DNA from: Candidatus Latescibacterota bacterium
Lineage (GTDB): Bacteria; Latescibacterota; UBA2968; UBA8231
Direction of reading: 5' to 3'
DNA: 26,907 nt
Assembly (NCBI GenBank): GCA_016187725.1
Contig: JACPJE010000266.1
Location: 1-26,907 of the forward strand
Each line of letters starts with the position of its first letter. Position 1 is the first letter of the stretch. The notes below the pieces were generated by a model that did no database searches, was not told the origin of the DNA, and saw nothing but the letters and a program-made list of their open reading frames with translations. Both the position numbers and the translations under genes were made by a program. Shown here one piece after another: positions 7,298 to 24,650 of the stretch.

Positions 7298-7383
7298 AAT
7301 CCTTCGGCTTGCGGCGCTGAGATCCGTTGGGGCCCCCAATATAGGCCAATTCAGGCCAGGCAGGTATGGCCGCGCGAAGGGCT

Positions 7384-7418
7384 CCTCACATGAACCAGCG
7401 CTGCTCCTGGTGCACCGC
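7384..7418. repeat. 35-bp direct repeat, right copy
   Basis: 34/35 identical to 2832-2866, same orientation, 4552 bp away. It encodes the last 10 codons plus the stop of the APH-like gene on the minus strand. Confidence 0.85.
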
Positions 7419-8114
7419 CCAGTCCAGGTCGAAGATACCCACCACCTCTCCCTGCCCGGAGAAGAGCAGGTTGGCCGGGGTGTAGTCCCCGTGGATCACC
7501 CACCCCCCCAGGGGAGCATAGCCGGCCCCCGCGTAGTGGCGCTCCTGTGCGTCCACCCGGGTGAGAAAGCGGTCCACCAGGGCCTCTCCCTCAAGATTGG
7601 TCGCCAGGCTCCTGACCGCTATCAGATTCTCGCGCTGCAACTGGGGATCGTCCAGGCGCCCGCTCACCGCGGAGGAGAAACCCAGGGTGGTGTATTGCGC
7701 GATGGGCTCGGTCGGCCCGGCGGGCCGGTACTGCGCTGCGGCCTGGTGGAAGTGGGCCAGGGCCTGGGCGGCGCTGACCAGTTCGCCGCGCTGCTGCGGG
7801 TCGAAGGGCCGGCCAATGACAAAGGGGTAGAGTTCGTACACCCCCTCGGGCCGGCGCAACCAGACCTGACCGGCGGTGGTTTTCAGGGCAGCCACCGTGG
7901 GGATGCCCCGGGCGACCAGGTGGGCGCGCAGTCCGTGGTCAAAGGCCAGGCGCGCCTCGCCCGAGGTGCGGGCGCCCCGGCGGCGCAGGAAGTACTCGCC
8001 CCGGCTGGTGGTGACCTTCCAGGTGCGGCCCGCGGTGCCACCGGCCGGCACCAACTGCAATATCTGGCCCACTTCGTAGGCGGCCAGCACCTGGCTGGTC
8101 TGGGGGTCTGTCAT
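7386..8114 (-). CDS. aminoglycoside/homoserine-kinase-II-type phosphotransferase (APH/ChoK family), 3'-truncated; possible pseudogene
   Basis: ATG 8112-8114. It has a kinase-like N-lobe, the Brenner motif VIHGDYTPANLLF and the DFG-equivalent IFDLDWA. The ORF stops 12 residues later (AVHQEQRWFM*) inside the 35-bp repeat, so about 90-100 residues of the C-lobe are missing. Confidence 0.6.
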   Translation of the reverse strand: MTDPQTSQVLAAYEVGQILQLVPAGGTAGRTWKVTTSRGEYFLRRRGARTSGEARLAFDHGLRAHLVARGIPTVAALKTTAGQVWLRRPEGVYELYPFVIGRPFDPQQRGELVSAAQALAHFHQAAAQYRPAGPTEPIAQYTTLGFSSAVSGRLDDPQLQRENLIAVRSLATNLEGEALVDRFLTRVDAQERHYAGAGYAPLGGWVIHGDYTPANLLFSGQGEVVGIFDLDWAVHQEQRWFM

Positions 8115-10788: not shown

Positions 10789-10842
10789 GGAGGCCGGGGG
10801 GATTTATATTATTGCAGGATGCTCTGCAGAGAGGAGCAGGCG

Positions 10843-12858
10843 ATGGTCGTGCCATCTGCGCATACTACCTGGCGAGCACGGGGTCTCATGGCCGCCCTGT
10901 GGCTGTCGCTGGCCACTGCCGCCCAGGCCCAGATCTCCTTCTGGCAACTGGGCGGCGGTGGCCTGTCTTGGGCAGAGAGCGACACGACGCGGGTGATGGT
11001 GGCCGTCGACGAGCAGGCCAACACCATCCAGCCGGTCTATTTCTCCGAGGGCGACAACATGATGTTGGCCGTGTCGGGTTGGTCAGAACTGAAGATCCCC
11101 CGCGAGCTTGGCTACATCGACGGCCACCAGCCGCGCCTGTGGCTCCAGGACGGCACCAGCGCCTACTTCACCTCCTACTATGATAGCCCCCTGTACGTGG
11201 ATGGCGACCGCAGCACCTACAACACCGCGCGCCTGGGCTGGTGGACCATAGACCTGGGCGTGCCGGTGCCGGCCAGGCGCTTCGGTTTTCTCACCCCTAC
11301 CGAGGGCTTCCGCTCGGACGGGGTGCCCTTGAACCAAGATCCGGTGCCGGCCTTCGAGGTGTCTGTTTCCGAGGAGAGCGATCCAGCCCTGGAGCTGAGG
11401 GACTACCACCGCCTCAACACCCTGATCGCCGATGTGCAGGAAAACTTCGCCGAGGAGGTGGAGATCGAATTTCCCCCCCAGTACGTGCGCTTCATCCGCT
11501 ATAACCGCAACGCCTCGGTGCTGGACGAGCAGACCATCAGCAATACGGTCCGCGGCACCATCGCCGAATTCGTGCTCCACGGCCAGGGCGTACCCAAGCG
11601 GGCCATCTACTTGACCCAGATCATCGACCTGGGAGCGGAGGTGAACTTCGGCCGCATCTTCTGGGCGGTCAGCACCTGGCGCATGGTAGCCGGGGCGCCC
11701 GTGGAGACGCCAGGGGCCCGGGCCTGGGTGGAGGTCGAGGCGCGCAGCGGCCGGGACAGCGATCCCAATGTGTACCACGAGTACACGGACTCGGGCAAGG
11801 AACTGTTTGTATCGCGCCAGCGCTATGAGCACGAATTGCGCCAGCCCGAGACCGAGGGGGTGCTTCAGCTCGACCGGCGCCCTGGAATACAGGCCTCGAT
11901 CGCCTATGATCTGGAGAACTGGAGTTTCTGGTCCATCCCCCTCACCCAGTCGGGTAGCCTCCTCGAGCTGCGCAATGGCGCGTACCTGCAATTGCAGATC
12001 ACCCTGCAGAGCCGGGCCTTCGGCGATTTCGTGCGCCTGGACTCTGTGTGGATTGAGCAGTCGCCGCCCCTGGCCGACCAGGTGCTAGGCGAGGTGGCCC
12101 TGCTGGACGAGCCTCGGCCAGCGCTCGGCTTCACCCAGGTCGAGCTGGGCCGGCGCGCGGCTTTTGCCTATGACCTCAGAGCCATCTTCGCCTCGGCGGC
12201 CCAGGGCGGCTTTGACGCGGTGCGCCTGCGCGCCGGCAGCCGGCCGCGCTTTTTGCGCCTGGAGATGGGTGAACCCCTGGTCCGGGTAGAGCCGGCCGGA
12301 GTCGCCGAAGAGGAGGAGGGGCTGGTCGTCCTGCTGCCGGAGAAAGTGACCGGCCAGCGCAATGTGCCCGCGCGCGTGGTCTTTGACACCGAGGTGTTTC
12401 TGCACGCCACGACCTTCGAAGGCGAGGTCTCCGATTCAAAAGTGGAAAGCCTGCCCCAGCCAATCGAACCCGGGGATGCGGGCGACTATATTTCTACCGG
12501 CAGCCTGCGCGTGCTGGGCGGCCGCGGCCGGACGCCCGGTTTCATCGAGGATTTAGAGCTCTCCGGCGCTGTGGTGACACCCAACGGCGATGGGATCAAC
12601 GACCGGCTGACCATCCGCTACAATCTGTTCCTGTTGCCCGAACCCATTCCGGTGGAGTTGAATGTGCACGACCTGCAGGGCCGGCGCCGTCTGCACCTCG
12701 AGGTGGGCGCGCAGGAGGCCGGGCCCCAAGAGGTGTTCTGGGACGGCCGGGACAACGAGGGGAGGCTGCTGGAACCGGGCATCTACCTGGTGGACATTCG
12801 CCTGCGCTCCGAGCTGAAAGACCTCCGCCAGGTGCGCCCGGTGGGTCTGGCCTACTAG
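10843..12858 (+). CDS. secreted discoidin (F5/8 type C)-domain protein with a C-terminal T9SS-type-B-like (CHU_C) sorting domain, 671 aa
   Basis: ATG 10843 with GAGGAG 6 nt upstream. Signal peptide MVVPSAHTTWRARGLMAALWLSLATAAQA/Q. Discoidin-like signatures (VDGDRSTYNTARLGWWTIDLG...; PQYVRFIRYNR). C-terminus SGAVVTPNGDGINDRLTIRYNL...LHLEVGAQEAGPQEVFWDGRDNEGRLLEPGIYLVDIRL matches the FTPNGDGxNDxF gliding-motility / T9SS type B C-terminal-domain motif. Confidence 0.75.
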   Translation: MVVPSAHTTWRARGLMAALWLSLATAAQAQISFWQLGGGGLSWAESDTTRVMVAVDEQANTIQPVYFSEGDNMMLAVSGWSELKIPRELGYIDGHQPRLWLQDGTSAYFTSYYDSPLYVDGDRSTYNTARLGWWTIDLGVPVPARRFGFLTPTEGFRSDGVPLNQDPVPAFEVSVSEESDPALELRDYHRLNTLIADVQENFAEEVEIEFPPQYVRFIRYNRNASVLDEQTISNTVRGTIAEFVLHGQGVPKRAIYLTQIIDLGAEVNFGRIFWAVSTWRMVAGAPVETPGARAWVEVEARSGRDSDPNVYHEYTDSGKELFVSRQRYEHELRQPETEGVLQLDRRPGIQASIAYDLENWSFWSIPLTQSGSLLELRNGAYLQLQITLQSRAFGDFVRLDSVWIEQSPPLADQVLGEVALLDEPRPALGFTQVELGRRAAFAYDLRAIFASAAQGGFDAVRLRAGSRPRFLRLEMGEPLVRVEPAGVAEEEEGLVVLLPEKVTGQRNVPARVVFDTEVFLHATTFEGEVSDSKVESLPQPIEPGDAGDYISTGSLRVLGGRGRTPGFIEDLELSGAVVTPNGDGINDRLTIRYNLFLLPEPIPVELNVHDLQGRRRLHLEVGAQEAGPQEVFWDGRDNEGRLLEPGIYLVDIRLRSELKDLRQVRPVGLAY

Positions 12859-12868
12859 AGGTGTGCTC

Positions 12869-15226
12869 ATGATCTCCTCGGTCAGATGGCTGCGCTGGGC
12901 CTTTGGGCTGGGCTCCCTGATTCTGGAGGCAGGGTCAGGCCGGGCCGAGGTGTTCACCATCGACAGCGCCCCGGAGTGGCAGACCTGGCAGTTTCCCCAG
13001 GGCCTGGTGCAGATCAGCCAGGCCGGGCACCTGGAGCTGACCCGGTTCCGCAGGGGGATAGATCCGGTCCGCGACGCGGAGCAGTTCACCCACCCCACGG
13101 TAACCCGCGGCCAGGTGTCCGGGGGGATCTGGCGGGCGGCCTCCAATCCGCAGGCGGCCGCCCGGATTATCGATGGAGACCGGCGGACCTCCTGGAAGCC
13201 CGAGGCGGCCGACCCCCTGGCTGCCTGGGAGGTCGAGATCGACCTGGGCCGCGCGGTGCTGGTCCGCCAGCTCCGCCTGATCTTTCCCGACGAAGAGGGG
13301 GCGCACCCCTTCAGGCAGTTCAGCGTGTACGTGGCCACCGGGGCCACGATCACCATCGCGGACGACCTCTTCTCTTTCGACACGGTCTATCAGACGACCC
13401 TGCCCAACACTGAGCGGGAGATCGCCATCGACCTGTCCGGGCGCAAGGACACTACCAGGGTGCTGGATCCGGGCCTGGACCCGGAAGACGAGTCCGGCTT
13501 TCGCGTCGTCCAGTACATCCGCTTTGGCGCCGATGCCAAAAGCGAGGATGCGGCGCTGGCCGAAATCGAGGTGGTGGCCGTGGGCGACAATATAGGCCTG
13601 GGCGCCCTGGAAAGGGGTGGCACCTTCAGCGCCGGGCTGGTGACGCGTGATCCGCAGTTCATGATCGACGGCAACATGAACACCCACGCCAACAAGTTCA
13701 CGGTATTCCGCGTCAGCGGCGACTGGAAGGCAGATGGCCTGTGGTGGGAACTGGACCTGGGCGCCCTGTTCTGGCTCGACGAAGTCTTCCTCTACTTCAA
13801 TGACCCCGGCGAAGGGGCCTCGGGATCGACGACGCGCAATGCCGGCACGGGCTTTGCCTTCCGCTTCTCCGAAGGGAGGCGCACTACCTCGGGCGAGGTG
13901 GACTACACCCCGCTGGTCGCCGAAGGAGACGAGCAAGCCCCCTTCTACATCGAAGACCGGCACTTTCGCTACCTCTTCGCCCCGCGCCAGGTCCGCTACC
14001 TGTTGTGGTACGGCTTTGTGACCCCGCAGGAATGGCACGCGCGCGTCCCGGAACTCATGCTCTTCTCTCCGGGATACCCGGCCCAGGTGGTGCTGCGCTC
14101 CGGCTTCATCGACCTGGGGCGGATCGCAGGGGACAACCGGCCCAAGGCTATCAGGAGCCTTTCCTGGGAAGTGGAACTGCCGCCCAGGACGCGCATGCAG
14201 TTGCGCTCGCGCTCGGGCAGCTCGTTCAAGGAGGAGTACACCTTTCACGACAAGAAGGGGGAGATCGTCACCGAGGCCAGGTGGAACAGCCTGCCCAAGG
14301 CCGTCAAGGGGCCGGTGGACACGGTGCTGGTGGCAGGTGGCGACTGGAGTCCCTGGAGCAATTTCTACCAGCTCTCAGGCGAAGCGTTCCAGTCGGAGAA
14401 CCCCAGGCGCTTCCTCCAGCTGGAGGCCATCCTGTCCACCGATGATCCTGAGGTGGCGCCGGTGCTGCGCTCGCTCGCCATCGAATACGAGGACGCGCTG
14501 GTGCGCCAGGCCCGTGGCCGCCTAGAGCCGCGCCAGGCCAGGCCCAATGAAGCGACGCGCTTTACCTATACCTTGTGGCCCAGCGTCGGGGAAGACGACA
14601 GCGGCTTCGACGCCCTGCGCCTGGTGGCGCCGGAAGGGCTGATAGACGCAGGGAGGATCGAGGTGCGGAGCGGCGAGGAGAGGATCGCCCCGGCAGAGGT
14701 GAGCGTGAGTCAGGACTCGCTGTGGGTGTTCCTGCCCCAGCAGCACAGAGCAGACTCGCTGGAGTTGAGTTTCACCGCCCGCCTGCTGCGCAATGCCACG
14801 GTCTTCGCCCTGGACCTGGGCAATGCGGCTCGCCCGGGGCTGTGGCAGTCGGTGGAAGCGGTCGAGCGGGGGGCCAATGTGGTTTTCCTGCCCGAACTGA
14901 CGGGCAGCCAGAGACTGATCCGCGACCTGGAGATCATCCCGCCGGCCTTCACTCCCAACGGCGATGGGATCAACGACCAGCTGGAGATCCGCTTCGCGGT
15001 GCTCAAGGTGGAGAAGGCCCGGCCCCGGGTGCGCATTTTCGATCTGGCCGGCCGGCCCGTGGCAGAACTGACAGAGGCAGGGGGTGGCCTCGCCAAGGTC
15101 TACAGATGGTCGGGGATTGCTGCGGATGGCCATAGGGTGGCGCCGGGGGTGTACCTGTGCCATATAGACCTGGGCGCTGAGGTGGGGAAGGAGGCAGTGG
15201 CGCGCTCCATCGCGGTGGTGTACTGA
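12869..15226 (+). CDS. secreted protein with two discoidin-like domains and a C-terminal T9SS-type-B-like (CHU_C) sorting domain, 785 aa
   Basis: ATG 12869 with AGGTG 5 nt upstream, 10 nt after the previous stop. Signal peptide MISSVRWLRWAFGLGSLILEAGSGRA/EV. Discoidin signatures IDGDRRTSWKP...WEVEIDLG...VVQYIRF and MIDGNMNTHANKF...WWELDLG...QVRYLLW. C-terminus FTPNGDGINDQLEIRFAV...VRIFDLAGRPV...YRWSGIAADGHRVAPGVYLCHIDLG. Paralogous C-terminal domain with the previous gene. Confidence 0.75.
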   Translation: MISSVRWLRWAFGLGSLILEAGSGRAEVFTIDSAPEWQTWQFPQGLVQISQAGHLELTRFRRGIDPVRDAEQFTHPTVTRGQVSGGIWRAASNPQAAARIIDGDRRTSWKPEAADPLAAWEVEIDLGRAVLVRQLRLIFPDEEGAHPFRQFSVYVATGATITIADDLFSFDTVYQTTLPNTEREIAIDLSGRKDTTRVLDPGLDPEDESGFRVVQYIRFGADAKSEDAALAEIEVVAVGDNIGLGALERGGTFSAGLVTRDPQFMIDGNMNTHANKFTVFRVSGDWKADGLWWELDLGALFWLDEVFLYFNDPGEGASGSTTRNAGTGFAFRFSEGRRTTSGEVDYTPLVAEGDEQAPFYIEDRHFRYLFAPRQVRYLLWYGFVTPQEWHARVPELMLFSPGYPAQVVLRSGFIDLGRIAGDNRPKAIRSLSWEVELPPRTRMQLRSRSGSSFKEEYTFHDKKGEIVTEARWNSLPKAVKGPVDTVLVAGGDWSPWSNFYQLSGEAFQSENPRRFLQLEAILSTDDPEVAPVLRSLAIEYEDALVRQARGRLEPRQARPNEATRFTYTLWPSVGEDDSGFDALRLVAPEGLIDAGRIEVRSGEERIAPAEVSVSQDSLWVFLPQQHRADSLELSFTARLLRNATVFALDLGNAARPGLWQSVEAVERGANVVFLPELTGSQRLIRDLEIIPPAFTPNGDGINDQLEIRFAVLKVEKARPRVRIFDLAGRPVAELTEAGGGLAKVYRWSGIAADGHRVAPGVYLCHIDLGAEVGKEAVARSIAVVY

Positions 15227-18200
15227 ATGCAACGCTCTCCTTGTGCGGTGCTCCTGGCGCTGATGCTAGCCGGCGCCACAGGGGCACAACAACTGGAGAT
15301 TCCCAATCCCTCTTTTGAGGAGGGGCAGGGGCAGCCGGCGGGCTGGACCCTGGCGGGGAACGGCGAGTGGGCGCAGGGCGGGGCCGAGGGCGAACGGGCC
15401 CTGCTGGTGAGCGGCGATGGGGAGAGCACCAGTTTCTGGCGCTCGGCGCTGCTGTCCCTGAAGCCGGGCGGCCTTTACCTGCTGCGCTTCAGGGCCCGCG
15501 GTCTGGAAGGGGGCGGCGGCACGCCCACCAGCGGGCCGGTCTTCTGCAACCGCGATCTGGGCGATCTGGGCAGTGAGTGGGGGGAGCAGACCTCGGTGTT
15601 CAAGGTGCCCGATTCCCTGGAGGCGGAGCGGGCCTGGCTGCGCTTCGGCCAGTGGCACCTCAAGGGGGCGGTGGCCTTCGACGCGGTGGAGCTGGCCGAG
15701 GCCCAGCCCGTCTACACCCGCAGGGGAGATCTGATGTTGGGCGAGGGCGAGGAAATCGACAGCCGGCGCTACACCTTCGCGGCTCCTTTTCACAGCTCCT
15801 CGCGCAACCACAGCCGGCCCCTGGCCGCCCAGCGCTGCGACTTCAACACCAACCGCTGGGTCTTCGGGGCCGGCAGCTACGCGATCTACCGCCACGAGCT
15901 GGCTGGCCGTCTTCAGCGCGACGCCCAGGTGGCGGTGACCATCGGGTATTACCAGGCCGGGGAACTGGTGGTGGAGGCCAGCGCCGAGGGCGGGCAATGG
16001 CGGGAGTTGGGCACCCTGGGCGAGGCGGGCAGCCGCAGCTTCGCCCTGCCCGGCGAGCTGCTGCCGGCACCAGTGATTTGGGTCCGGCTGCGCGCCCAGG
16101 CCAGGCAGGCGCTGGGCGCCAATTCGGACCCGGGCTCCTTCCAGATCCACAACTATACTTACCGTTCGGTCGTGGAGGGCGAGCCGCTGCGCGTGCAGGG
16201 GCACACCCAGTTTGTGGTGATCCAGGGCATTGATCCCCGGTTGCAGGTGCAGGTCGCAGGTCTGGGCGAGCAGGTGCCCGGCGGCGACAACCGCATCGCC
16301 GTGCAGATCGAAAACACCAGCGGGGGCACCCTTTCCCTGGTGCAGGGGGTGCAGGTGAAGGGGGAAGGAGTTGTGGCACAGATGGACACTGCGACCATCG
16401 CGCTGCCGCCTGGACCCAGCTCCCGGTCTCTTCCCTATGCTCTTCCCGGGTCTGGCAGCTTCTGGGTGGAGTACTCCCTGGGCGAGTTCCGCGCCGGGAC
16501 CTGGGTGTACCTGCCGCTGCTCTACGCCACAACCTACGGGGAGCAGTTGCCCGGGTCGAGGGCAGATGTGGGTCTGTGGTGGGCTTCCTCCGGGTGGAAG
16601 GTGAGCCGGCAGCGGCCCCTGCCCCAGGCCAAAGGCCAGACCCTGCGCATCCGCGCTGCCCGCGACGAACGCGAGGCTGCCCAGCTGGTGGTGCGGCCCG
16701 ACCGCAAGCTGCGCGGCCTGTGGGCAAGGCCTCAGGACCTGAGCGGGCCGGAGGAGGCCCGCATCGGGGCCGGGCAGATCGAGATCCTGCGCGTGGGGTA
16801 TGTGCCGGTGGCCCAGCCCTCGGATTACAGCGGCGCAGCGGCGCTCTGGCCTGATCCCCTGCCCCCGCTGAGCGAGCCCATCGACATTCCCGCCGGCACT
16901 GACCAGCCCCTGTGGGTGCGGGTCCACGTACCGCCCGGGACGCCGGCCGGGCTGTACACCGGCGCCATCGCCCTGGAGGCTGAAGGGTTCAGCGCCCTGG
17001 TGCCCCTGCAGGTGGAGGTCTACGATTTTGCGCTGCCACGGCGCATGAGCTGCACCACGGCCTTTGGCTTCTCGCCCGAGGAGGTCTTCCGCTATCAAGC
17101 GCTCTCCGACCCGCAGCAGCAGCGGGCGGTGCTGGACCAGTATCTGGAGAATTTCAGCGCCCACCGGGTCTCGCCCTACGACCCGGCCCCCCTCGATCAC
17201 TTCGAGGTGAAATGGTCGCCGAACCTGGAGCCCAGCTTCTCGTGGCAGGCCTGGGATCAGGCCATGAGCCGGGCCATCGACACCCTGGGTTTCAACTCCT
17301 TCCGCCTGCCGGTGCAGGGCCTGGGCAGCGGCACGTACCACGACCGTACCGAACCGAGCCTGCAGGGCTTTGGGGAAAACACCCCCCAGTACCAGCAGGG
17401 CCTGCGCGCGTACCTGGGCGAACTGGAGCGCCACCTGGAGGAAAAGGGCTGGCTGGACGAGGCGTACGTGTACTGGTTCGACGAGCCCGACCCCAAGGAC
17501 TATGCCTTCGTGATGAAGGGTTTCGGCAAGCTCAAGGAATACGCCCCCCGCATCCGGCGCATGCTCACCGAACAGGTGGAGCCCGAATTAGTGGGCGGGC
17601 CCGACATCTGGTGCCTGCTCACCCCGGAGTGCGATTCCACCGCCATGACCGGGCGCCAGCAGGCCGGCGACGCCTTCTGGTGGTACGTATGCACGGTGCC
17701 CAAGGCGCCCTATGCCGGGCTCTTCATCGACCACCCGGCGACGGAAATGCGGGTCTGGCTGTGGCAGACCTGGCAGCGCAACCTGCAGGGGGTGCTGGTC
17801 TGGCAGACCAATTACTGGACCAGCGAGGCGGCGTACCCGGAGCACCCGCAGAATCCCTACGCCGATCCGATGAGCTGGGTGAGCGGGTACAGCACCGAGC
17901 GGGGTAACAAGCTGCCCTGGGGCAACGGGGACGGCCGCTTTCTGTATCCCCCCGAGGCGGCGGCCAGCGGCCAGGCGCATGAACCGGTGCTGACTGGGCC
18001 GGTGGACAGTATGCGTTGGGAAATGCTGCGCGACGGGATCGAGGACTACGAGTATTTCGCCATCCTCAAGAAGCTGTTGGCCGAGCAGGGGGCGGCCCTG
18101 GAGGCGGAGGAGCGCCGCACTTACGAGGCCCTCCTGCAGGTGCCCGAGGTGGTGAGCGCGGAGCTGACCCGCTTCACCGGCGACCCGGCACCCCTCGAAG

Positions 18201-18247
18201 CGCACCGCCACGAATTGGCCAGGGCCATCGAGGCGCTGGGCCGGTAA
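15227..18247 (+). CDS. secreted glycoside-hydrolase-like protein with an N-terminal CBM4/9-like module and DUF4091-like (GH123-like?) C-terminal region, 1006 aa
   Basis: ATG 15227 directly abuts the upstream TGA (TGAATG). Signal peptide MQRSPCAVLLALMLAGATGAQQ. NPSFEEGQGQPAGWTLAGNG is a CBM4/9-type opening. GLYTGAIALEAEGFSALVPLQVEVYDFALP, then WGNGDGRFLYPP and MRWEMLRDGIEDYEYFAIL, are hallmarks I associate with DUF4091-containing glycosidases. Confidence 0.6.
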   Translation: MQRSPCAVLLALMLAGATGAQQLEIPNPSFEEGQGQPAGWTLAGNGEWAQGGAEGERALLVSGDGESTSFWRSALLSLKPGGLYLLRFRARGLEGGGGTPTSGPVFCNRDLGDLGSEWGEQTSVFKVPDSLEAERAWLRFGQWHLKGAVAFDAVELAEAQPVYTRRGDLMLGEGEEIDSRRYTFAAPFHSSSRNHSRPLAAQRCDFNTNRWVFGAGSYAIYRHELAGRLQRDAQVAVTIGYYQAGELVVEASAEGGQWRELGTLGEAGSRSFALPGELLPAPVIWVRLRAQARQALGANSDPGSFQIHNYTYRSVVEGEPLRVQGHTQFVVIQGIDPRLQVQVAGLGEQVPGGDNRIAVQIENTSGGTLSLVQGVQVKGEGVVAQMDTATIALPPGPSSRSLPYALPGSGSFWVEYSLGEFRAGTWVYLPLLYATTYGEQLPGSRADVGLWWASSGWKVSRQRPLPQAKGQTLRIRAARDEREAAQLVVRPDRKLRGLWARPQDLSGPEEARIGAGQIEILRVGYVPVAQPSDYSGAAALWPDPLPPLSEPIDIPAGTDQPLWVRVHVPPGTPAGLYTGAIALEAEGFSALVPLQVEVYDFALPRRMSCTTAFGFSPEEVFRYQALSDPQQQRAVLDQYLENFSAHRVSPYDPAPLDHFEVKWSPNLEPSFSWQAWDQAMSRAIDTLGFNSFRLPVQGLGSGTYHDRTEPSLQGFGENTPQYQQGLRAYLGELERHLEEKGWLDEAYVYWFDEPDPKDYAFVMKGFGKLKEYAPRIRRMLTEQVEPELVGGPDIWCLLTPECDSTAMTGRQQAGDAFWWYVCTVPKAPYAGLFIDHPATEMRVWLWQTWQRNLQGVLVWQTNYWTSEAAYPEHPQNPYADPMSWVSGYSTERGNKLPWGNGDGRFLYPPEAAASGQAHEPVLTGPVDSMRWEMLRDGIEDYEYFAILKKLLAEQGAALEAEERRTYEALLQVPEVVSAELTRFTGDPAPLEAHRHELARAIEALGR

Positions 18248-18260
18248 TGAGGAGGAAAAC

Positions 18261-18305
18261 ATGGGCATCCGCGTCAGGGATTGCTCACAACATGAGGTGA
18301 GATGA
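18261..18305 (+). CDS. 14-codon upstream ORF (MGIRVRDCSQHEVR) translationally coupled to the GH36-like gene
   Basis: Strong SD GGAGG at 18251-18255, 5 nt before ATG 18261. Its TGA (18303-18305) overlaps the downstream ATG (18302-18304) as ATGA. The downstream gene has no properly spaced SD of its own. Confidence 0.3.
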   Translation: MGIRVRDCSQHEVR

Positions 18306-20296
18306 TGGACACTGCCATCGTACCTAGCACCAAACCCGAGGACATGGCGCAGAGCCGGGCCTGGACAGGGGGCTTCTTCGCCAGCGCCACCGACCTCCCC
18401 ATCTCGTTTGTACTCGACGGGAAAGCCCTAAAGGGCATTCCCGTCGCATGGCATCCGGCGGTGGAGCGCCGCCGCATCGACGCCAATATCTGCGAGACGG
18501 TTTTCGCGGGCGCTGATCCCAGGACGGGCCTGAAGGTCCGGGTCGAATGCACGGAATACCAGGACTACCCGGTCGTCGAATGGGTGGCCTGGTTTGCCAA
18601 CCAGGGAGCGGAGGACACGCCGGTGATCCGCGACATCCTCGCCATGGACGGCGTGTTCGCGGGGCCTTCGCCGGTGCTGCACCATTGCAACGGTGACTTC
18701 TACAGCGAGGAAGGATACACGCCCAGCCAGACGCCTCTGCGCGCCGGAGACCAGGCCGACTTTGCGCCAAACGGGGGCCGCCCCTGCGATGGGGCGTTCC
18801 CCTATTACCGTATCGAGTTTGAAGGCTGCGGCCTGAGCATGGCCGTCGGCTGGCCCGCGCAGTGGGCGGCCAGGTTCGGCGGGCTGGCAGAGGGGGTGCA
18901 GGTCCGGGTGGGTCAGGAAAGGACCGCACTGCGGCTCAGGCCGGGCGAGCGCATCCGCACCCCGCGCGTGACGGTCCTGTCCTGGACCGGGGAGGTCGGC
19001 AGGGCAGTGAACCTGTGGCGGCGGTGGTACCTCGCCCATATCCTTCCCAGGCCCAAGGGGCAGCCGCTGCGCCCGCTGCTGGCCTGCTGCTGCCCTGACG
19101 AAGGCGAGGAATTCACCGCTGCGACCGAGGAGAACCAGCTCCGCTATATCGAGCGTTTCAAGCAGCAGGGCATCCCCTTTGACCTCTGGTGGATCGACGC
19201 CGGATGGTATCCCTGCTACAACAAAGACCGCGAGCGGAAGTGGTGGATCACCGGCACCTGGGAACCTGACCCCGAGCGCTTTCCCCGCGGTCTGAAACCG
19301 GTAGCCGACCGTGCCGCCAGGGAGGGGGCCGACCTGCTGGTCTGGTTCGAGCCCGAAAGGATACAGCCGGGCACCAGGCTCGACGTGGAACGTCCGGAGT
19401 GGCTGCTGAGGGCGAAGGGGAGCGACAACGGCCTGCTGAACCTGGGCGACCCTGAGTGCCGGCGCTGGCTCACGGATCACCTGTGCCGGCTGATCGAGGA
19501 CAACGGCATCAGGATCTACCGGCAGGACCACAACTTCCCGCCCCTGGAACACTGGCGCCAGAACGAGGCCGGAGACCGCCAGGGGATGAACGAGAACCTC
19601 CACGTCCAGGGCTACCTGCAGTTCTGGGACGATTTGCTGGCGCGCAACCCCGGCTTGTGGATCGATTCGTGCTCCAGCGGCGGGCGCCGCAACGACCTGG
19701 AGACCATGCGCCGCTCGGTGCCGCTGCACTACACCGACTACGGGTACGGGGACCATCCGGTAAAGCTGGCCTTCCACCGCACGCTGTACGAGTGGATACC
19801 CTATTTCAAGGAGGCCACCCTCTCCTGGGACCTGGGCGGGAGGGATAAGTTCGACCATCAGGTGGACAGTTACTCCTATCACTGCGCCCTGGCGCCCATG
19901 CTCTTTGCGACGCTGGACATCCGCCGGGACGATTACGACTTTGCCCTGGTCAGGAAGATGATCGGGGTCTGGCGCCGGGCCTCAGACCTGATCTTGCACG
20001 GCGACTACTACCCTCACACGCCCTTCCACCACCGCGCGCAGGCGTGGGTCGCCTGGCAGTTCGACTGCCCGGAACGAGGATGCGGGTTGCTCCAGGGGAT
20101 CCGCCTGCCCGAAGCTCCGGAAGAGGAGATCACCATCCAGCCACAAGGGATGCACCCGGACGCCAGCTATCGCTTCGAGCACGCGGAAACGGGGGAGACC
20201 AGAACGGTCTCGGGCGCAGGGCTGATCCAGGGCGGCTTCACCTTCGCGCTGCCCATACGCAGCGCCGCCCTCTGGTTCTATAAGGAGGTCCGCTGA
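18302..20296 (+). CDS. glycoside hydrolase family 36-like (melibiase/alpha-galactosidase or alpha-GalNAc-ase family) protein, 664 aa
   Basis: GIRIYRQDHN resembles the GH36 KWDMN nucleophile region. DSCSSGGRRNDLETM resembles the GH36 CxGGGR(F/L)D acid/base region. An N-terminal beta-sandwich plus central TIM-barrel layout is implied by the length. Stop TGA 20294-20296. Confidence 0.65.
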   Translation: MMDTAIVPSTKPEDMAQSRAWTGGFFASATDLPISFVLDGKALKGIPVAWHPAVERRRIDANICETVFAGADPRTGLKVRVECTEYQDYPVVEWVAWFANQGAEDTPVIRDILAMDGVFAGPSPVLHHCNGDFYSEEGYTPSQTPLRAGDQADFAPNGGRPCDGAFPYYRIEFEGCGLSMAVGWPAQWAARFGGLAEGVQVRVGQERTALRLRPGERIRTPRVTVLSWTGEVGRAVNLWRRWYLAHILPRPKGQPLRPLLACCCPDEGEEFTAATEENQLRYIERFKQQGIPFDLWWIDAGWYPCYNKDRERKWWITGTWEPDPERFPRGLKPVADRAAREGADLLVWFEPERIQPGTRLDVERPEWLLRAKGSDNGLLNLGDPECRRWLTDHLCRLIEDNGIRIYRQDHNFPPLEHWRQNEAGDRQGMNENLHVQGYLQFWDDLLARNPGLWIDSCSSGGRRNDLETMRRSVPLHYTDYGYGDHPVKLAFHRTLYEWIPYFKEATLSWDLGGRDKFDHQVDSYSYHCALAPMLFATLDIRRDDYDFALVRKMIGVWRRASDLILHGDYYPHTPFHHRAQAWVAWQFDCPERGCGLLQGIRLPEAPEEEITIQPQGMHPDASYRFEHAETGETRTVSGAGLIQGGFTFALPIRSAALWFYKEVR

Positions 20297-20315: not shown

Positions 20316-21146
20316 ATGAAATTTCAGGTCTACCAGTCCCTGTGGGGCATGGTGGGGCTCCCTTTCGGCGGAGCAAAGGAATGGACCCTGGAGGAGAAGG
20401 TGGCCAAGATCGCCGAGGCCGGCTTCGACGGGGTGGAGTTCCTCATGGAGGACCCGGCGCACCTCAAGGCCATGCTGCCCCTGGTCGAGAAACACCAGCT
20501 CCGGCGCAGCAATATCGTCTTCCCCTGGACCCCTGAGGAGTTCAAGGCCGACATCCAGGCGGCCCGCGACGGGGGAGCTACCCACATCAACCTGCAGCCC
20601 ATGCCCATGCCGCGCAGTGTGGCAGCCGGGGTGCCCTATCTGGTGCGCTGCATGGACCTGGCCGCAGCGGCGGGTTTTCCGCTCTATATCGAGACCCACC
20701 GCGACCGCATGACCACTGACATGTACTTCACCCTGGACCTGATCGAGGCGGTGCCCGATCTGGTGCTCTGCGGCGATCTGTCGCACTTTCTGGTGGGGCG
20801 GGAGTTCGCCGGCCCGCCGCTCTCCGCTGACAATGACCGCTACATGAAGCAGATCCTGGAACGCTGCGGCGCCTTCCACGGCCGGGTGGCTTCGCGCGAG
20901 CAGGTGCAGGTGCCCATCTCCTTCCCCCATAACAAGGTCTGGCTGGACCTGTACACCAGCTGGTGGGAGTACGGGTTCAGGAAGTTCAAGGAGCGGGCTA
21001 AACCGGAGGATACCCTCACCTTTGTGGTGGAGCTGGGGCCGCCCACCTATGCCCTGCAGGGGGCCGACGGCAAGGAATTGTCCGACCGCTGGCAGGAAGC
21101 GCAGCAGCTCAAGGACCTGGTGTGGGCGATCTGGAAGCGGGTTTGA
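20316..21146 (+). CDS. sugar phosphate isomerase/epimerase (xylose-isomerase-like TIM barrel) family protein, 276 aa
   Basis: ATG 20316 with AAGGAG 4 nt upstream. Family-like segments include GFDGVEFLMED, PLYIETHRDRMTTD and LCGDLSHFLVG. Last gene of the plus-strand operon. Confidence 0.75.
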   Translation: MKFQVYQSLWGMVGLPFGGAKEWTLEEKVAKIAEAGFDGVEFLMEDPAHLKAMLPLVEKHQLRRSNIVFPWTPEEFKADIQAARDGGATHINLQPMPMPRSVAAGVPYLVRCMDLAAAAGFPLYIETHRDRMTTDMYFTLDLIEAVPDLVLCGDLSHFLVGREFAGPPLSADNDRYMKQILERCGAFHGRVASREQVQVPISFPHNKVWLDLYTSWWEYGFRKFKERAKPEDTLTFVVELGPPTYALQGADGKELSDRWQEAQQLKDLVWAIWKRV

Positions 21147-21169
21147 ATTAGAGCGGGCGCTAAAAGAAC

Positions 21170-21211
21170 AGAGCCGCTTCCCCAGCAGGGAGGCAGCTCT
21201 GGTTGTTTGTA
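21170..21211 (+). terminator. putative rho-independent terminator after the isomerase gene
   Basis: CAGAGC-C-GCUUCCC-CAGCA-GGGAGGC-A-GCUCUG forms a stem of about 13 bp (one mismatch, one G-U) followed by GUUGUUUGU. Read by eye; the energy was not computed. Confidence 0.45.
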
Positions 21212-21274
21212 CGGCCGCACGTGGGCGCCGGCGATGCCGCCGCAGCCGATCAGGGCCATCTTTACGCGTTCCAT
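21203..21274 (-). pseudogene. remnant of the 5' end of a Gfo/Idh/MocA-family oxidoreductase gene (about 24 codons)
   Basis: MERVKMALIGCGGIAGAHVRPYKQ matches the Rossmann N-terminus of Gfo/Idh/MocA proteins (IGCGGIA..H). It starts 19 nt after the cNMP-gene stop with a weak AAGAG SD. The frame then degenerates and runs into the convergent isomerase gene about 60 nt later. Confidence 0.4.
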
Positions 21275-21293
21275 CCGCTCTTTTCCGTCCAAC

Positions 21294-21689
21294 TCAGCCG
21301 CTGACGATGTAGCGGATCATCTCTTCCTCCAGCTCACGGATACGGCGCGACAAGGTCTGCAGCAGGCGGTAGCCCAGTTCAGGATTGTCGTGGATCCGGT
21401 GGAGAATGGTCTCCCGGGAGACGGACATGATCTGCACCTCGCCGCGGGCGCGCACGGTGGTGCGGGCGATACTGGGCGAGACGATGCGTTCGAGAAAGGG
21501 GACCTCGCCGAAGAAGCCCCCCTTGCTCAGCACGGCTTTCTGGATCTGCTGGCCCTGGTCCTCGTGCAGAATTTCGACCTGGCCTTCCCTGACGATGTAC
21601 ATGAACTCGCAGACCGAACCCTGCTGGACGATGATCTGGCCGTCCTCATAGGTGTGGATAGTGGGTGCCATGGTGCCATCGCTGGTCAT
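21294..21689 (-). CDS. standalone cyclic-nucleotide-binding (cNMP/Crp-type effector) domain protein, ~125-131 aa
   Basis: GQIIVQQGSVCEFMYIVREGQVEI...GGFFGEVPFLE...ARTTVRARGEVQIMSV is a canonical cNMP-binding beta-roll with no HTH. Start is ATG 21689 or 21671; neither has a good SD. Confidence 0.7.
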   Translation of the reverse strand: MTSDGTMAPTIHTYEDGQIIVQQGSVCEFMYIVREGQVEILHEDQGQQIQKAVLSKGGFFGEVPFLERIVSPSIARTTVRARGEVQIMSVSRETILHRIHDNPELGYRLLQTLSRRIRELEEEMIRYIVSG

Positions 21690-21741
21690 CGAGAGCGGCC
21701 GAATATGGGTGGCAATGCAGGGGCAAGAGGTGCTGCATAAT

Positions 21742-22083
21742 CTAAGGTTGGTTGAGCAAGTTGTCCAACTCCGCTGCCAGCTGCAGCTGGCGGCTTTCTT
21801 TTTCTTCCCGGGTCTGAAGCTCGTCCCTGAGGCGGAAGATCTGCTGCTCGATTTTGTGTTTTTTTAGCTGCAGCTCGGATTTCTGGCGTTCGGCAGCTTC
21901 GCGCTGGAGACGCAGGGCCTTGAACACGGCGATCTGGGCCTGCCACTCTTGCAGCAGGCCCTTCAGTTCCCGCCGTTGCCGGTTGAGCAGACGCTGAATG
22001 AGGATCTTTTCGACGACCACCAGAGCCACGGCCAGGCTGGTGATGTAAAATGCTTCGGCGGTGGAGGGGAGTTCCATAGCCAT
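21742..22083 (-). CDS. membrane-anchored coiled-coil protein (possible C-terminal part of a split RodZ-like protein), 113 aa
   Basis: I placed the start at ATG 22081-22083 (MAMELPSTAEAFYITSLAVALVVVEKIL = one TM), followed by a heptad-like coiled coil. No SD. The same frame stays open and Pro-rich upstream to 22233, overlapping the 3' end of the HTH gene. Confidence 0.5.
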   Translation of the reverse strand: MAMELPSTAEAFYITSLAVALVVVEKILIQRLLNRQRRELKGLLQEWQAQIAVFKALRLQREAAERQKSELQLKKHKIEQQIFRLRDELQTREEKESRQLQLAAELDNLLNQP

Positions 22084-22105
22084 GCTTCCGGGGAGAGGGA
22101 GGGAT

Positions 22106-22429
22106 TCAACGCGAAAGTCCCAGCGCGGCCCAGCGCCGCACCCAGGAGCGGGCCGGGGGAGCCGGTCTGACCTGGGGCGGGGGAGGGGGCGGGCTGCACA
22201 GGGTTTCGAGTTGCTGCACGATGGTGGCGGCATTCAGGTTCAGGTGTTCGGCATAGGAGCGCAGCGCCAGACGGATGTACACCAGTTCCACCACCTCAAA
22301 GGCGCCGGCTTCGAGGTTTTGCAGGATATAGTGACTCAGGCCGGTATGGCGGTGGACCTGCTCCAGGGTCTTGCCCTGTTCTTCGCGCGCCTGTCGCAGG
22401 CGCCATCCTAATTTTGCCTTATCATCCAT
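22106..22429 (-). CDS. helix-turn-helix protein (RodZ-like HTH_25/XRE-type N-terminal domain) with Pro-rich tail, 108 aa
   Basis: ATG 22427-22429 with AGGAGG 6 nt upstream. LGWRLRQAREEQGKTLEQVHRHTGLSHYILQNLEAGAFE...VYIRLALRSYAEHLNL matches the RodZ-type HTH and following helix. C-terminus is SPPPPPPQVRPAPP. Confidence 0.65.
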   Translation of the reverse strand: MDDKAKLGWRLRQAREEQGKTLEQVHRHTGLSHYILQNLEAGAFEVVELVYIRLALRSYAEHLNLNAATIVQQLETLCSPPPPPPQVRPAPPARSWVRRWAALGLSR

Positions 22430-22495
22430 AAATGGCCTCCTCGTCGGTCGGCATGAGGTGAAAACCATCAGTTCTTGCTCGGCCCCTGCCGGGCT

Positions 22496-23092
22496 TCAGG
22501 CGTGGGCGCTGCGGCGCCCGGCGTTGGCCCCAGCCCACAATTCCTCGAGTTTTTGCTCCAGATCTCCCAGGGAGACGGGTTTTTCCAGGCAGCAGTCCGC
22601 CCCGCACTCCAGGGCTTTGCGGACGTTCTCCGGGGTGGCATATCCGGTCAGCACCACGACGATGGCCTGGCGGGTCTGCGGGTTGGACTTGATCCCTCTG
22701 CACACCTTGAAGCCGTCGATATTAGGCATCATGAGGTCGAGGATGACCAGTTCCGGGCAGCCCCCGGCGATCTGGATGCCGGCCTCAAAGCCGTCCGTCG
22801 CGGTGGCGACCTCGTAAGCGTTGGTCTTGCTGAAGAAGGTGCTGAGGAATTTGACGACGGCCGGGTCATCGTCCACGATCAGCACTTTCCTCTGAAGGGC
22901 AGGCCCGGTGAGGGGGGGCAGGTTGTACTCCTTGAGAAATTCCTCAAAGTCGGCGCGGCGGACCCGGTGGTGCCGGCCGGGGGTGGTATAGGCCTTGAGC
23001 TTGCCGCTTTTGATCCACTTGCTGACAGCCTCATAGGAAACGCGGCAATGGGCGGCTATTTCTCCGGTGGTCAGCAGGGCCTTATTTCTCAT
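22496..23092 (-). CDS. response regulator with inverted architecture: N-terminal excisionase/MerR-type HTH (HTH_17-like) plus C-terminal REC receiver domain, 198 aa
   Basis: ATG 23090-23092. LLTTGEIAAHCRVSYEAVSKWIKSGKLKAYTTPGRHHRVRRADFEEFL is an excisionase-family HTH. KVLIVDDDPAVV...LVILDLMMPNIDG...IVVVLTGYA...CLEKP is a REC domain with all conserved residues present: DD, phospho-acceptor D, T, K. No histidine kinase is in the window. Confidence 0.75.
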   Translation of the reverse strand: MRNKALLTTGEIAAHCRVSYEAVSKWIKSGKLKAYTTPGRHHRVRRADFEEFLKEYNLPPLTGPALQRKVLIVDDDPAVVKFLSTFFSKTNAYEVATATDGFEAGIQIAGGCPELVILDLMMPNIDGFKVCRGIKSNPQTRQAIVVVLTGYATPENVRKALECGADCCLEKPVSLGDLEQKLEELWAGANAGRRSAHA

Positions 23093-23111
23093 AGGTCTCC
23101 GGTCTCCGCAA

Positions 23112-23165
23112 TAGGTTGGATAAGTTGGAGAAGATTGAAAGGTTGGAATTTTCTCTAAAGAAAAT
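23112..23165. promoter_or_regulatory. divergent-promoter element: four tandem 9-bp repeats (TAGGTTGGA/TAAGTTGGA/GAAGATTGA/AAGGTTGGA) immediately followed by an 18-bp palindrome ATTTTCTCTAAAGAAAAT
   Basis: Read directly. The AT-rich 179-bp gap lies between the response-regulator start (23092, minus) and the plus-strand ORFs (23272 onward). The palindrome matches in 8 of 9 mirrored positions. Confidence 0.45.
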
Positions 23166-23271
23166 CAAGACCGCGCCCATTGTCAAGGGGCCAGGGAGGG
23201 AGATGCCCTTGCCTTTACCGGCAGCCTTGTCTAAAATGCTGAGGCGATTTCCGGCCAGGAGAGGAGCGGGG

Positions 23272-23355
23272 ATGACGGAAACGGAGCAATACCTGTTCGA
23301 TGTACACGGCTATCTGGTGATCAAAGGCGCCCTGTCTGCACAGAAGGCCGCATGA
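23272..23355 (+). CDS. 27-codon ORF (MTETEQYLFDVHGYLVIKGALSAQKAA) with strong SD, overlapping the start of the next gene; leader peptide or remnant of a PhyH-like N-terminus
   Basis: AGGAGAGGAG at 23257-23266, 5 nt before ATG 23272. TGA 23353-23355 overlaps ATG 23352 (ATGA). The peptide resembles the TxEQxxxFxxxGYLVIxGxLS opening of phytanoyl-CoA-dioxygenase-family proteins. Confidence 0.35.
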   Translation: MTETEQYLFDVHGYLVIKGALSAQKAA

Positions 23356-24650
23356 GAGTCCACGCAGACCTCGGCATCCTCGTCCCCCAGGTGTACCTGC
23401 CCGGGCCGGACATCGACCCGCATCGCTGGGCCGCCATCGCCGTCGACCAGTTCACCTCCCAGCCCGAATACTGGGCACGGGCGGAGCGCATCGTCGCCGA
23501 TGCCCCCTCCACCCTGCGCCTGACCCTGCCCGAGATCTACCTCGAAAAACCCGATGAAACGGAGCGGATCCAAGGTATCCAGGCCGCCATGCGCCAGTAC
23601 CTGGAGGCAGGCGTGCTCCAGCCGCGCGAAGGACTCATCTACGTGGAGCGCACCCTGGGCCACGGAGTCCGCAAGGGCCTCATCCTCGCCCTCGACCTGG
23701 AGCGCTACGACTATACCCGGGGCGCCACCAGCCTCATCCGCGCCACCGAGGGGACCATCGTCGAGCGCCTGCCCCCGCGCCGGAAGATCCGCGCCGGCGC
23801 CGCGCTCGAACTGCCTCATATCCTGGTGCTCATCGACGACCCCGGGCGCACGGTCATCGAGCCGGTGGGTGCGGCCAGGAGCTGGCTGGTAAAACTCTAC
23901 GACTTTGAGCTGATGCTCGGCGGCGGGCGGCTCGCCGGCTATGCCGTGGACGACCTGGCGCAGGAGCAGGCGGTCATCGGAGCCCTGCGCGGTCTGGTCG
24001 GGGGGGCGGGAGGGGAAGCGCTGCTCTTTGCGGTGGGCGATGGCAACCACTCGCTGGCGGCGGCCAAGGTGCTGTGGGAGGAGTTGAAGCCGGCGGTGGG
24101 CATGGACCACCCTGCCCGCTATGCCCTGGTCGAGGTAGTGAACATCCACGACGAGGGATTGAGCTTCGAGCCCATCCACCGGGTGCTCTTCGGGTTGCGG
24201 CAGGATTTCTTCGCCTTCTTGCGGCAATCTTGTGGAGAGCGCCTCACCTGTACGCCCGTGGCCAGCGCCGCAGCGCTGGTGGAACGCGTCGCCGCGGCCA
24301 GGGACGGGGCGGGACATACCGTCGGCCTCGGCGGCGGCGGGAGCGACAGCCCCTTCTGCGCGGTCGAGATCGCCGACCCTGTAGCCAGTCTGCCGGCCGG
24401 CACCATCCAGGATCTGCTCGACGCCTTTATGGAGGCCGGAGGGGCAGAAAAAATCGACTATGTACACGGAGAGGAAGTGACCTTGCGCCTGGGCAGCCAG
24501 CCCGGCAATCTGGGCCTCTGCCTGCCCCACCTGGACAAGGCTGCGCTCTTCAGGACCGTCCGGCGCGACGGGGTCATGCCGCGCAAGACCTTCTCCCTGG
24601 GCGAGGCGCACGAGAAGCGTTTCTACATGGAGGCGCGCAAGATCGCCTGA
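23352..24650 (+). CDS. conserved hypothetical protein, possibly DUF1015 family, 432 aa
   Basis: GC3-biased 1.3-kb ORF. The N-terminal pattern and the LIYVERTLGHGVRKGLILALDLERYDY...ATEGTIVERLPP...LPHILVLIDDP stretch are reminiscent, from my memory of that family, of DUF1015 (COG4198). There is also a GDGNHSLAAAK motif. Confidence 0.5.
   Translation: MRVHADLGILVPQVYLPGPDIDPHRWAAIAVDQFTSQPEYWARAERIVADAPSTLRLTLPEIYLEKPDETERIQGIQAAMRQYLEAGVLQPREGLIYVERTLGHGVRKGLILALDLERYDYTRGATSLIRATEGTIVERLPPRRKIRAGAALELPHILVLIDDPGRTVIEPVGAARSWLVKLYDFELMLGGGRLAGYAVDDLAQEQAVIGALRGLVGGAGGEALLFAVGDGNHSLAAAKVLWEELKPAVGMDHPARYALVEVVNIHDEGLSFEPIHRVLFGLRQDFFAFLRQSCGERLTCTPVASAAALVERVAAARDGAGHTVGLGGGGSDSPFCAVEIADPVASLPAGTIQDLLDAFMEAGGAEKIDYVHGEEVTLRLGSQPGNLGLCLPHLDKAALFRTVRRDGVMPRKTFSLGEAHEKRFYMEARKIA

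Follow-up and report, generated by a model that had tools for sequence, protein, structure and literature searches.

The subject of this analysis is a response regulator gene and a set of short direct repeats in front of it, located on contig JACPJE010000266.1 (GenBank assembly GCA_016187725.1) of a Latescibacteria metagenome-assembled genome (Candidatus Latescibacterota bacterium). The whole stretch of 26,907 nucleotides (nt) is referred to below as the window. On its minus strand, four co-oriented genes with short gaps or overlaps follow each other in the order regulator, HTH_25 protein, membrane-anchored coiled-coil protein, and cyclic nucleotide monophosphate (cNMP)-binding protein; positions 21294-23092 run exactly from the stop codon of the cNMP-domain open reading frame (ORF) to the start of the regulator ORF. 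The genes form a single transcription unit, approximately from 23186 to 21162, as they are bounded by a conserved promoter block and a terminator hairpin. The regulator combines a helix-turn-helix (HTH) domain with a receiver, and the four tandem repeats at its promoter are a candidate operator. All features are listed in Table 1.

Table 1. Genes, regulatory elements, and gene remnants at the regulator locus (coordinates refer to the window unless a locus label is given)
Feature	Coordinates	Strand	Basis and remarks
Response regulator, 198 amino acids (aa): winged HTH, linker, receiver (residues 68-197; D119 phospho-acceptor)	22496..23092	-	Pfam, alignment, model
Four tandem 9-bp direct repeats, TCCAACCTT / TCAATCTTC / TCCAACTTA / TCCAACCTA	23112..23147	-	TCCAAC type, AAATT ahead; candidate operator
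-35 hexamer TTGACA of the operon promoter	23181..23186	-	Read from the sequence
-10-like hexamer TTTCTT, 17 nt past the -35 hexamer	23158..23163	-	Placed by position; weak
Shine-Dalgarno-like GGAG, 4 nt ahead of ATG (23092)	23097..23100	-	Read from the sequence
Small soluble HTH_25 (XRE/RodZ-N-type) protein, 107 aa, proline-rich tail	22106..22429	-	Pfam HTH_25, 6.8e-15
Small membrane-anchored coiled-coil protein, 113 aa (MAMELPS) or 111 aa (from 22077)	21742..22083	-	ORF 21742-22233
Stand-alone CRP-like cNMP-binding-domain protein, 131 aa	21294..21689	-	Pfam cNMP_binding, 2.9e-16
Remnant of a GFO_IDH_MocA oxidoreductase gene, ~20-26 codons	21215..21274	-	Comparison with intact relatives
Intrinsic terminator hairpin, CAGAGCUGCC...GGCGGCUCUG then UUCUUUU	21162..21201	-	Free energy -24 kcal/mol, z -3.2
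PhyH-family remnant, 27 codons (MTETEQYLFDVHGYLVIKGALSAQKAA)	23272-23355	+	Stop overlaps DUF1015 start (ATGA)
Transmembrane/coiled-coil neighbours of regulator homologs	L089 1103-1693; L125 7971-8663; L098 4274-4615; L115 52-372	L115 -	No family assignment

The regulator and its family

Pfam places HTH_17 at residues 6-55 of the regulator (E = 1e-12, 48.5 bits at a cutoff of 27) and Response_reg at residues 70-182 (E = 1.9e-24). The initial annotation of this region, made from the sequence alone, had described an HTH of this type followed by an intact receiver, and both the domain order and the HTH_17 assignment are borne out. Because an alignment of 31 homologs shows no variation at D74, D75, D119 (the phospho-acceptor position), T149, or K171, the receiver is predicted, by its residues, to be a working phospho-acceptor. 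The AlphaFold2 model (predicted local distance difference test score 89) consists of a winged HTH at residues 6-55, formed by a strand (6-8), helices 9-16 and 20-28, a wing, and helix 46-55, followed by a 12-residue linker (56-67) and a (beta/alpha)5 receiver. Foldseek searches with the whole model yielded receivers only, with template modelling (TM) scores of about 0.9, and no solved structure that spans both domains. NCBIfam returned only generic receiver matches to the regulator, all far under the family cutoffs.

A homology search with the regulator retrieved 1,410 proteins at E<=1e-3; among the 120 best matches, almost every one has about 200 aa and is comprised of HTH_17 and Response_reg. 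JGI names them "excisionase family DNA binding protein" and NCBI, "response regulator". A gammaproteobacterial query added 827 further proteins at E<=1e-10, including ones from cultured Alteromonas, Marinobacterium, Neptuniibacter, and Salinimonas. With one genome per species scanned, full-length homologs (27-45% identity) were found in Chloroflexota, Spirochaetales, Methylobacter, Syntrophales, Chromatiales, and Bacteroidetes, as well as in Spongiibacteraceae, Nannocystis (Myxococcota), Pseudomonadales, Elusimicrobia, and Betaproteobacteria. Overall, the homologs span more than ten phyla. When a library was clustered at 50% identity, the top 150 representatives included about 55 full-length matches, each in a single stretch, of 186-250 aa. 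For the library as a whole, the count of 425 matches at E<=1e-30 is only a rough measure of the family size, and is inflated because multi-receiver hybrid kinases match as well. Some representatives (P0263, P0264, P0283, P0317, and P0381) carry the whole HTH-receiver unit at the N-terminus of proteins of 316-1,016 aa, and given this length the unit also occurs fused to extra C-terminal domains.

The best solved match to the receiver half is PDB 3cnb (E = 3.2e-19; TM score 0.93, root-mean-square deviation 1.1, 34% identity), the receiver of a "DNA binding response regulator (merR)" from Colwellia psychrerythraea, released in 2008. Its title shows that the architecture had been recognised by then. 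Compared with the window regulator, this structure covers the receiver only, is gammaproteobacterial, and has no reported function. In the literature searched, HTH_17 response regulators are found only as incidental mentions. We thus assign the regulator with high confidence to a widespread family of HTH_17-receiver ("MerR/excisionase-type", HnoC-like) response regulators. The initial annotation had not recognised it as part of a described system; the architecture is instead that of a common annotated family, the members of which have kinase partners in other genomes (see below). As an unrecognised system of inverted architecture the finding would matter little, the architecture being common, annotated, and represented by a studied member.

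The DNA-binding domain resembles BldC

The best solved matches to a profile of the N-terminal 65 residues are 6AMA (E = 4.2e-10) and 6AMK (E = 9.8e-10), which are complexes of BldC with DNA. BldC of Streptomyces is a MerR-like winged HTH protein without the coiled coil, and its cooperative multimers assemble head-to-tail on 9-bp direct repeats, AATTxxxx(C), the number of which varies (PMC5859096). In the model of the regulator, helix 46-55 leads through the linker into the receiver, and the MerR coiled-coil dimerisation helix is absent; the Pfam MerR profile matches faintly in a few homologs only. Judging by the profile and the model, the N-terminal domain is a winged HTH of the BldC type, lacking the coiled coil of MerR.

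At the level of single residues, the predicted agreement with the head-tail core of BldC is partial. The core residues F21, W31, and L43 of BldC map to C16 and W26, both invariant in the family, and to the near-invariant P38, none of which is charged, unlike in classical MerR proteins. The base-contacting R30 of BldC maps to K25 in the regulator and to Asn in most homologs. The overall designs also differ, as BldC is a domain-only protein of 68 aa with no sensory input, whereas the regulator has 198 aa and a fused receiver. The AATTxxxx(C) unit of BldC has a counterpart in the candidate sites of many regulator homologs, which are variable 9-bp direct repeats with AATT.

PDB 8jbs, a 327-aa "putative cobalamin binding protein", ranks third among the solved structures that match the BldC-like domain; hence, this type of winged HTH is also fused to a B12-binding sensor. 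The photoglobin paper likewise names HTH_17 among the domains coupled to photoglobin/B12-binding proteins.

Direct repeats upstream of the regulator gene

The four repeats lie between the -10-like box and the Shine-Dalgarno sequence of the regulator gene. The pattern TCCAAY-N3-TCCAAY occurs in the window at this promoter site only, and therefore no further targets are visible there. A strict YCAAY-N4-YCAAY-N4-YCAAY pattern has no match, since the phasing of the repeats varies (8, 9, and 10 nt).

We inspected the 130 nt ahead of the regulator gene at about 30 distinct loci (designated L with a number) with regulators of 43-80% identity. Nearly all of them contain TTGACA-N17-TAnnnT and, a few bases on, two to five tandem units, for instance AATTCCAAA in three copies in L097, TTTTCCCAA in three copies in L100, and GTTCCAAAAGTCCCAAAAATCCCAAT in L004. 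After dereplication to 28 regions, TCCAA was the top enriched 5-mer (29 occurrences observed and 2.0 expected), present in 16 of the regions and strongly biased in orientation, with 29 occurrences on the sense strand and one on the antisense strand. Successive YCAA motifs are spaced by 8-11 nt in 30 cases out of 50, with a mode of 9, while 500 shuffles gave a mean of 1.4 such cases and a maximum of 6. The two-unit pattern was found within 110 nt upstream of the regulator at 22 of 33 distinct loci, and only 14 times elsewhere in 515 kb of sequence, both strands included.

TTGAC is present in 21 of the 28 dereplicated regions, and the -10 boxes of other homologs are TATAAT, TAATAT, or TATTCT. 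Among four close relatives of the window locus, an upstream block of about 95 nt is kept, with the CTTGACA block unchanged in all of them, and the sequence farther upstream is not alignable.

More distant homologs (27-42% identity) have other repeat units with the same 9-nt period. In particular, L009 carries GTTTCATTAG three times (4607-4638; spacings 9 and 9), L012 carries GACATTTG twice (5930-5946; spacing 9), and L038 carries GAATTTGC twice (5960-5976; spacing 9). In L012, a palindrome, TTAGGTATAC/GTATACTTAA, is located beside the tandem repeats. Across loci, the regulator is the sole gene that is constant beside the repeats. This suggests that the repeats are probably an autoregulatory operator of the regulator, bound in the manner of BldC.

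Alternatively, the repeats could be an RNA element of the 5' untranslated region, such as a translational enhancer or the site of an RNA-binding protein, or they could be bound by another DNA-binding protein, a candidate being the HTH_25 protein from this unit. Transcription from the TTGACA-N17 promoter would place the repeats in the leader RNA, and they are A/U- and CA-rich and strand-specific, as would be expected of an RNA element. However, strand specificity is equally expected of head-to-tail binding, and the HTH_25 gene is missing from most loci with repeats. The repeat region matches no Rfam family; the scan of 21000-23500 gave a single sub-threshold and meaningless match. Moreover, the period of 9 nt is kept while the unit itself changes, as expected of a co-evolving pair of DNA site and protein, and it fits the 9-bp register of BldC. 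We therefore consider an RNA element or a foreign binding site unlikely.

Kinase partners in relatives and comparison with HnoC

No HisKA, HATPase_c, or cyclase domains were found in the ~30 large ORFs scanned across the 26.9-kb window, in agreement with the initial annotation, which had noted the lack of a histidine kinase nearby. In several relatives, kinases are encoded directly downstream of the regulator: a REC-PAS-HisKA-HATPase hybrid kinase in L007, a MASE3-PAS-kinase-REC protein in L008, and a GAF-PAS-kinase-REC protein in L009 (REC, receiver). In L125, a Latescibacterota locus with a regulator of 59% identity, the regulator is followed by a PAS-HisKA-HATPase-REC hybrid kinase, and the Salinimonas homolog adjoins a REC-HD_5 protein and a kinase. 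In L012, the regulator is followed by an H-NOX protein (HNOB, 6e-41), a histidine kinase, and a REC-HD_5 protein, which is the gene arrangement of the Hno network; the L012 regulator matches the window protein over its full length (42% identity) and has the same order of HTH_17 and receiver.

Other neighbours vary. In one further subclade (L004, L098, L099, and L106), a Cys-rich protein of ~110 aa is encoded after the regulator, and a single-domain receiver of ~126 aa usually comes next. The Cys-rich protein, usually together with the receiver, is located at 6622-7386 in L004, 3460-3774 in L098, 684-1429 in L099, and 1172-1904 in L106; it starts with MALGLLYTCxCGxRFK, has a second CxxC near residue 75, and looks like a zinc ribbon, with no Pfam match. 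In marine metagenomes, a protein of ~590 aa with the N-terminus ...LQYQLWLRI... and no Pfam match is encoded directly after the regulator (L096 6621-8405, L100 6625-8388, and L101 6774-8390). A Y_Y_Y-sigma54 activator is present near the regulator in L127, and sugar kinases in L126.

HnoC was reportedly described by Plate and Marletta in 2013 in the nitric oxide (NO) signalling network of Shewanella oneidensis; its domain order we take to be an N-terminal HTH and a C-terminal receiver. HnoC and the window regulator are alike in being MerR-type DNA-binding response regulators. According to the reports, HnoC is a MerR-type repressor, the sites of which overlap the -10 box and the transcription start site (TSS) (PMC9938897); the tetramer that binds DNA is unphosphorylated, and phosphorylation releases it (PMC12471899), and its site is an inverted repeat (PMC9814549). 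In these accounts, both the oligomeric state and the DNA binding of HnoC are under the control of receiver phosphorylation, and the sites overlap target promoters, including that of its own network. By contrast, the 26.9-kb window contains no H-NOX, kinase, or HD-GYP/EAL domains, and the clade of the window regulator has two to five direct repeats with 9-bp phasing in place of the inverted repeat that these sources give for the HnoC tetramer. A search for an inverted-repeat operator upstream of the regulator yielded only two weak, distant inverted pairs. The window regulator differs from HnoC, the only characterised member of the family, in its BldC-type domain with direct-repeat candidate operators and in its small membrane coiled-coil neighbours.

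Proposed mechanism

In the mechanism that we propose, a histidine kinase encoded elsewhere would phosphorylate D119, and phosphorylation would shift the oligomeric state of the receiver. The oligomeric state, in turn, would govern how the winged HTH domains bind the four 9-bp repeats, cooperatively and head-to-tail. With the repeats in the promoter of the regulator's own operon, the outcome would be autoregulation, most likely autorepression: autoregulation would follow because the repeats lie between this operon's -10 box and its ribosome-binding site, and repression is suggested by their location just past the -10 box, as for HnoC. The HTH_25, membrane coiled-coil, and cNMP proteins would be lineage-specific accessories and not components of a defined signalling system. 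We infer the operator role, the head-to-tail binding, and the direction in which phosphorylation acts. We lean, by a small margin over even chances, towards this picture of an orphan, autoregulated regulator with phosphorylation-controlled head-to-tail binding to the repeats.

Several observations weigh against it. No TCCAA-type two-unit pattern is present at 11 of the 33 loci, the region upstream of the Salinimonas homolog has no repeats, and in the window AATT precedes the first repeat alone. Only Trp is kept from the head-tail core of BldC, R30 being replaced by K25 or Asn. The -10 element of the window clade (TTTCTT) is poor, and it was not called as a -10 box by a promoter consensus scan of the region; for this reason, where the repeats lie with respect to the TSS can only be guessed. 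Finally, HnoC is reported to act on an inverted repeat as a tetramer and not on direct repeats (PMC9814549), and the likeness of the regulator to HnoC is one of description and of the L012 locus.

A more general and more tentative proposal, which we hold possible but somewhat doubtful, is that the regulators of this clade are "phospho-switchable BldC proteins", in which the receiver gates head-to-tail polymerisation of the winged HTH on arrays of 9-bp direct repeats, the regulator's own promoter being the first of them, and that the coiled-coil proteins encoded beside them are their dedicated partners. Anchored in the membrane, such partners could sequester the regulator there or connect it to a kinase. 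We know of no earlier description of a response regulator that binds DNA in the BldC manner, nor of a coiled-coil partner of this kind. For a large and mostly unstudied family, the present analysis yields a testable picture with a receiver-controlled BldC-type domain, an operator predicted base by base in front of each regulator gene, and a recurring small membrane coiled-coil neighbour. If confirmed, the model would extend the head-to-tail, variable-length DNA recognition of BldC to two-component signalling, and would provide a motif for regulon prediction in uncultured phyla of the FCB group (Fibrobacterota-Chlorobiota-Bacteroidota).

Small proteins encoded downstream of the regulator

The initial annotation had listed a RodZ-like HTH/transmembrane protein co-oriented with the regulator. 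The compact co-oriented unit was confirmed, but the protein turned out to be the product of two separate genes, an HTH_25 gene and a gene for a transmembrane coiled-coil protein. The start of the HTH_25 protein was set at M14 of ORF 22106-22468 by agreement with homologs. The protein shares the RodZ-type N-terminal HTH_25 domain, while in RodZ HTH_25, the transmembrane segment, and DUF4115 belong to one polypeptide; here, the transmembrane segment is encoded by the next gene, and neither a transmembrane segment nor DUF4115 was detected in the HTH_25 protein, which scores 42 bits with the NCBIfam rodZ model at a cutoff of 375. The HTH_25 and coiled-coil ORFs differ in frame in the window and L088; in L001 and L085, a stop codon separates the two within one frame. 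A single frameshifted RodZ-like gene was rejected as an explanation, since the ORFs are parted differently in four genomes and the homologs have ~105-112 aa. A search of 5.8 billion proteins yielded 22 homologs of the HTH_25 protein, 21 of them 105-112 aa long and the weakest one (E = 4.4e-4) 78 aa long. In L115 (regulator of 54% identity) the HTH_25 gene adjoins the regulator, and matching contig sizes suggest that several HTH_25 homologs share contigs with regulator homologs of 54-58% identity. The linkage of the HTH_25 gene to the regulator is thus deeper than that of the cNMP gene, and the HTH_25 protein is a clade-specific partner of the regulator.

The coiled-coil protein consists of an N-terminal transmembrane segment, a positively charged juxtamembrane stretch, and a coiled coil of ~70 aa. 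It has no Pfam or NCBIfam match, and its counterparts in L001 and L085 share 62-69% identity with it. Proteins of 93-113 aa with a transmembrane segment at the extreme N-terminus and a coiled coil are encoded beside regulator homologs in five lineages, that is, in the window clade, L089 and L125 (two copies each), L098, and L115. A composition filter, albeit crude, selected six such ORFs in the 90 kb downstream of regulators on the same strand and one in the remaining 425 kb, an enrichment of ~28-fold relative to the rest of the loci; the single match in the remaining part is the divergent neighbour of the L115 regulator. The subtype found in L115, L125, and L089 is alignable (26-31% identity), and the other subtype barely so. 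Of the three small downstream proteins, the membrane coiled-coil type recurs most widely, and we treat this recurring neighbour as a lead, its similarity being inflated by coiled-coil composition.

The stand-alone cNMP-binding protein is as initially described. It comprises a beta-roll and a C-helix, with no DNA-binding or other output domain, and is 27% identical to residues 21-132 of E. coli CRP. Relative to the CRP/FNR domains, with which it shares the beta-roll and the C-helix, its phosphate-binding cassette (GE...R[ST]A) is longer by three residues: G61 and E62 are present, and the insertion makes the Arg-Thr register ambiguous. Many CRP/FNR-type domains bind other ligands.

These genes could be seen, as in the initial annotation, as a four-gene module that integrates phosphorylation and a cyclic nucleotide, with the HTH/transmembrane part as output or anchor. 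A single promoter and a single terminator enclose the four genes, which share one orientation, their order is repeated in L085/L086 and L088, and the cNMP domain is a genuine CRP-like fold. However, the order of regulator, HTH_25, coiled-coil, and cNMP genes is kept only where the regulator is at least 78% identical (L001-3, L085/86, and L088), and in those loci synteny extends to the flanking DUF1015, PhyH, GFO_IDH_MocA, and AP_endonuc_2 genes. Hence, the four-gene conservation is uninformative with respect to function. The cNMP gene is absent from about 25 more divergent regulator neighbourhoods. It is intact in L085 and L088, and its ortholog is frameshifted in L001, L002, and L003, three assemblies of a Handelsmanbacteria-like relative (7374-7768, split near 7540-7570). 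In addition, the unit runs on into an oxidoreductase gene in relatives, no cyclase is encoded in the window, and the cassette is atypical, with its insertion and ambiguous Arg. With the cNMP linkage this shallow, a module responding to both signals seems quite unlikely.

That the HTH_17 protein is a receiver-regulated excisionase or recombination directionality factor of a mobile element, as might be proposed from its excisionase-type HTH, the JGI names of the homologs, the structural closeness of BldC to Xis, and the fact that Xis proteins bind direct repeats too, is highly improbable and was rejected because there is no integrase in the window, nor were transposases or att-like repeats found in it, and in relatives the genes are in stable chromosomal synteny with metabolic genes, with homologs inside two-component loci.

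Boundaries of the unit and neighbouring genes

Downstream of the cNMP gene, the remnant oxidoreductase gene corresponds to the full-length GFO_IDH_MocA gene that is the fifth gene of the unit in relatives (384 aa and intact in L001); in L085, the unit extends into a further gene of 698 aa. The terminator hairpin, called in part by a terminator scan, has a homologous counterpart behind the intact GFO gene of L001, and in the window a deletion joins the GFO_IDH_MocA remnant to this hairpin common to relatives. On the other side, a full PhyH gene (281 aa in L001) is located between the regulator and DUF1015 in L001, L085, and L088, and therefore ~0.8 kb has been deleted in the window. The regulator operon is thus flanked by two gene-sized deletions relative to relatives, which could be either true losses or assembly collapse.

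Window neighbours of the unit encode glycoside hydrolases (GH123 and melibiase-like), FGE-sulfatase, SPFH, APH, MR_MLE, and DUF1015 proteins, and a xylose-isomerase-like TIM barrel. On the plus strand, 10819-20296 is a co-oriented run of genes for secreted polysaccharide degradation; it includes proteins with FlgD_ig and CHU_C (type IX secretion signal) domains, a GH123-like protein of 1,006 aa, and a melibiase/GH36-like protein of 664 aa. The run is followed by the gene of the xylose-isomerase-like TIM barrel protein at 20316-21146.

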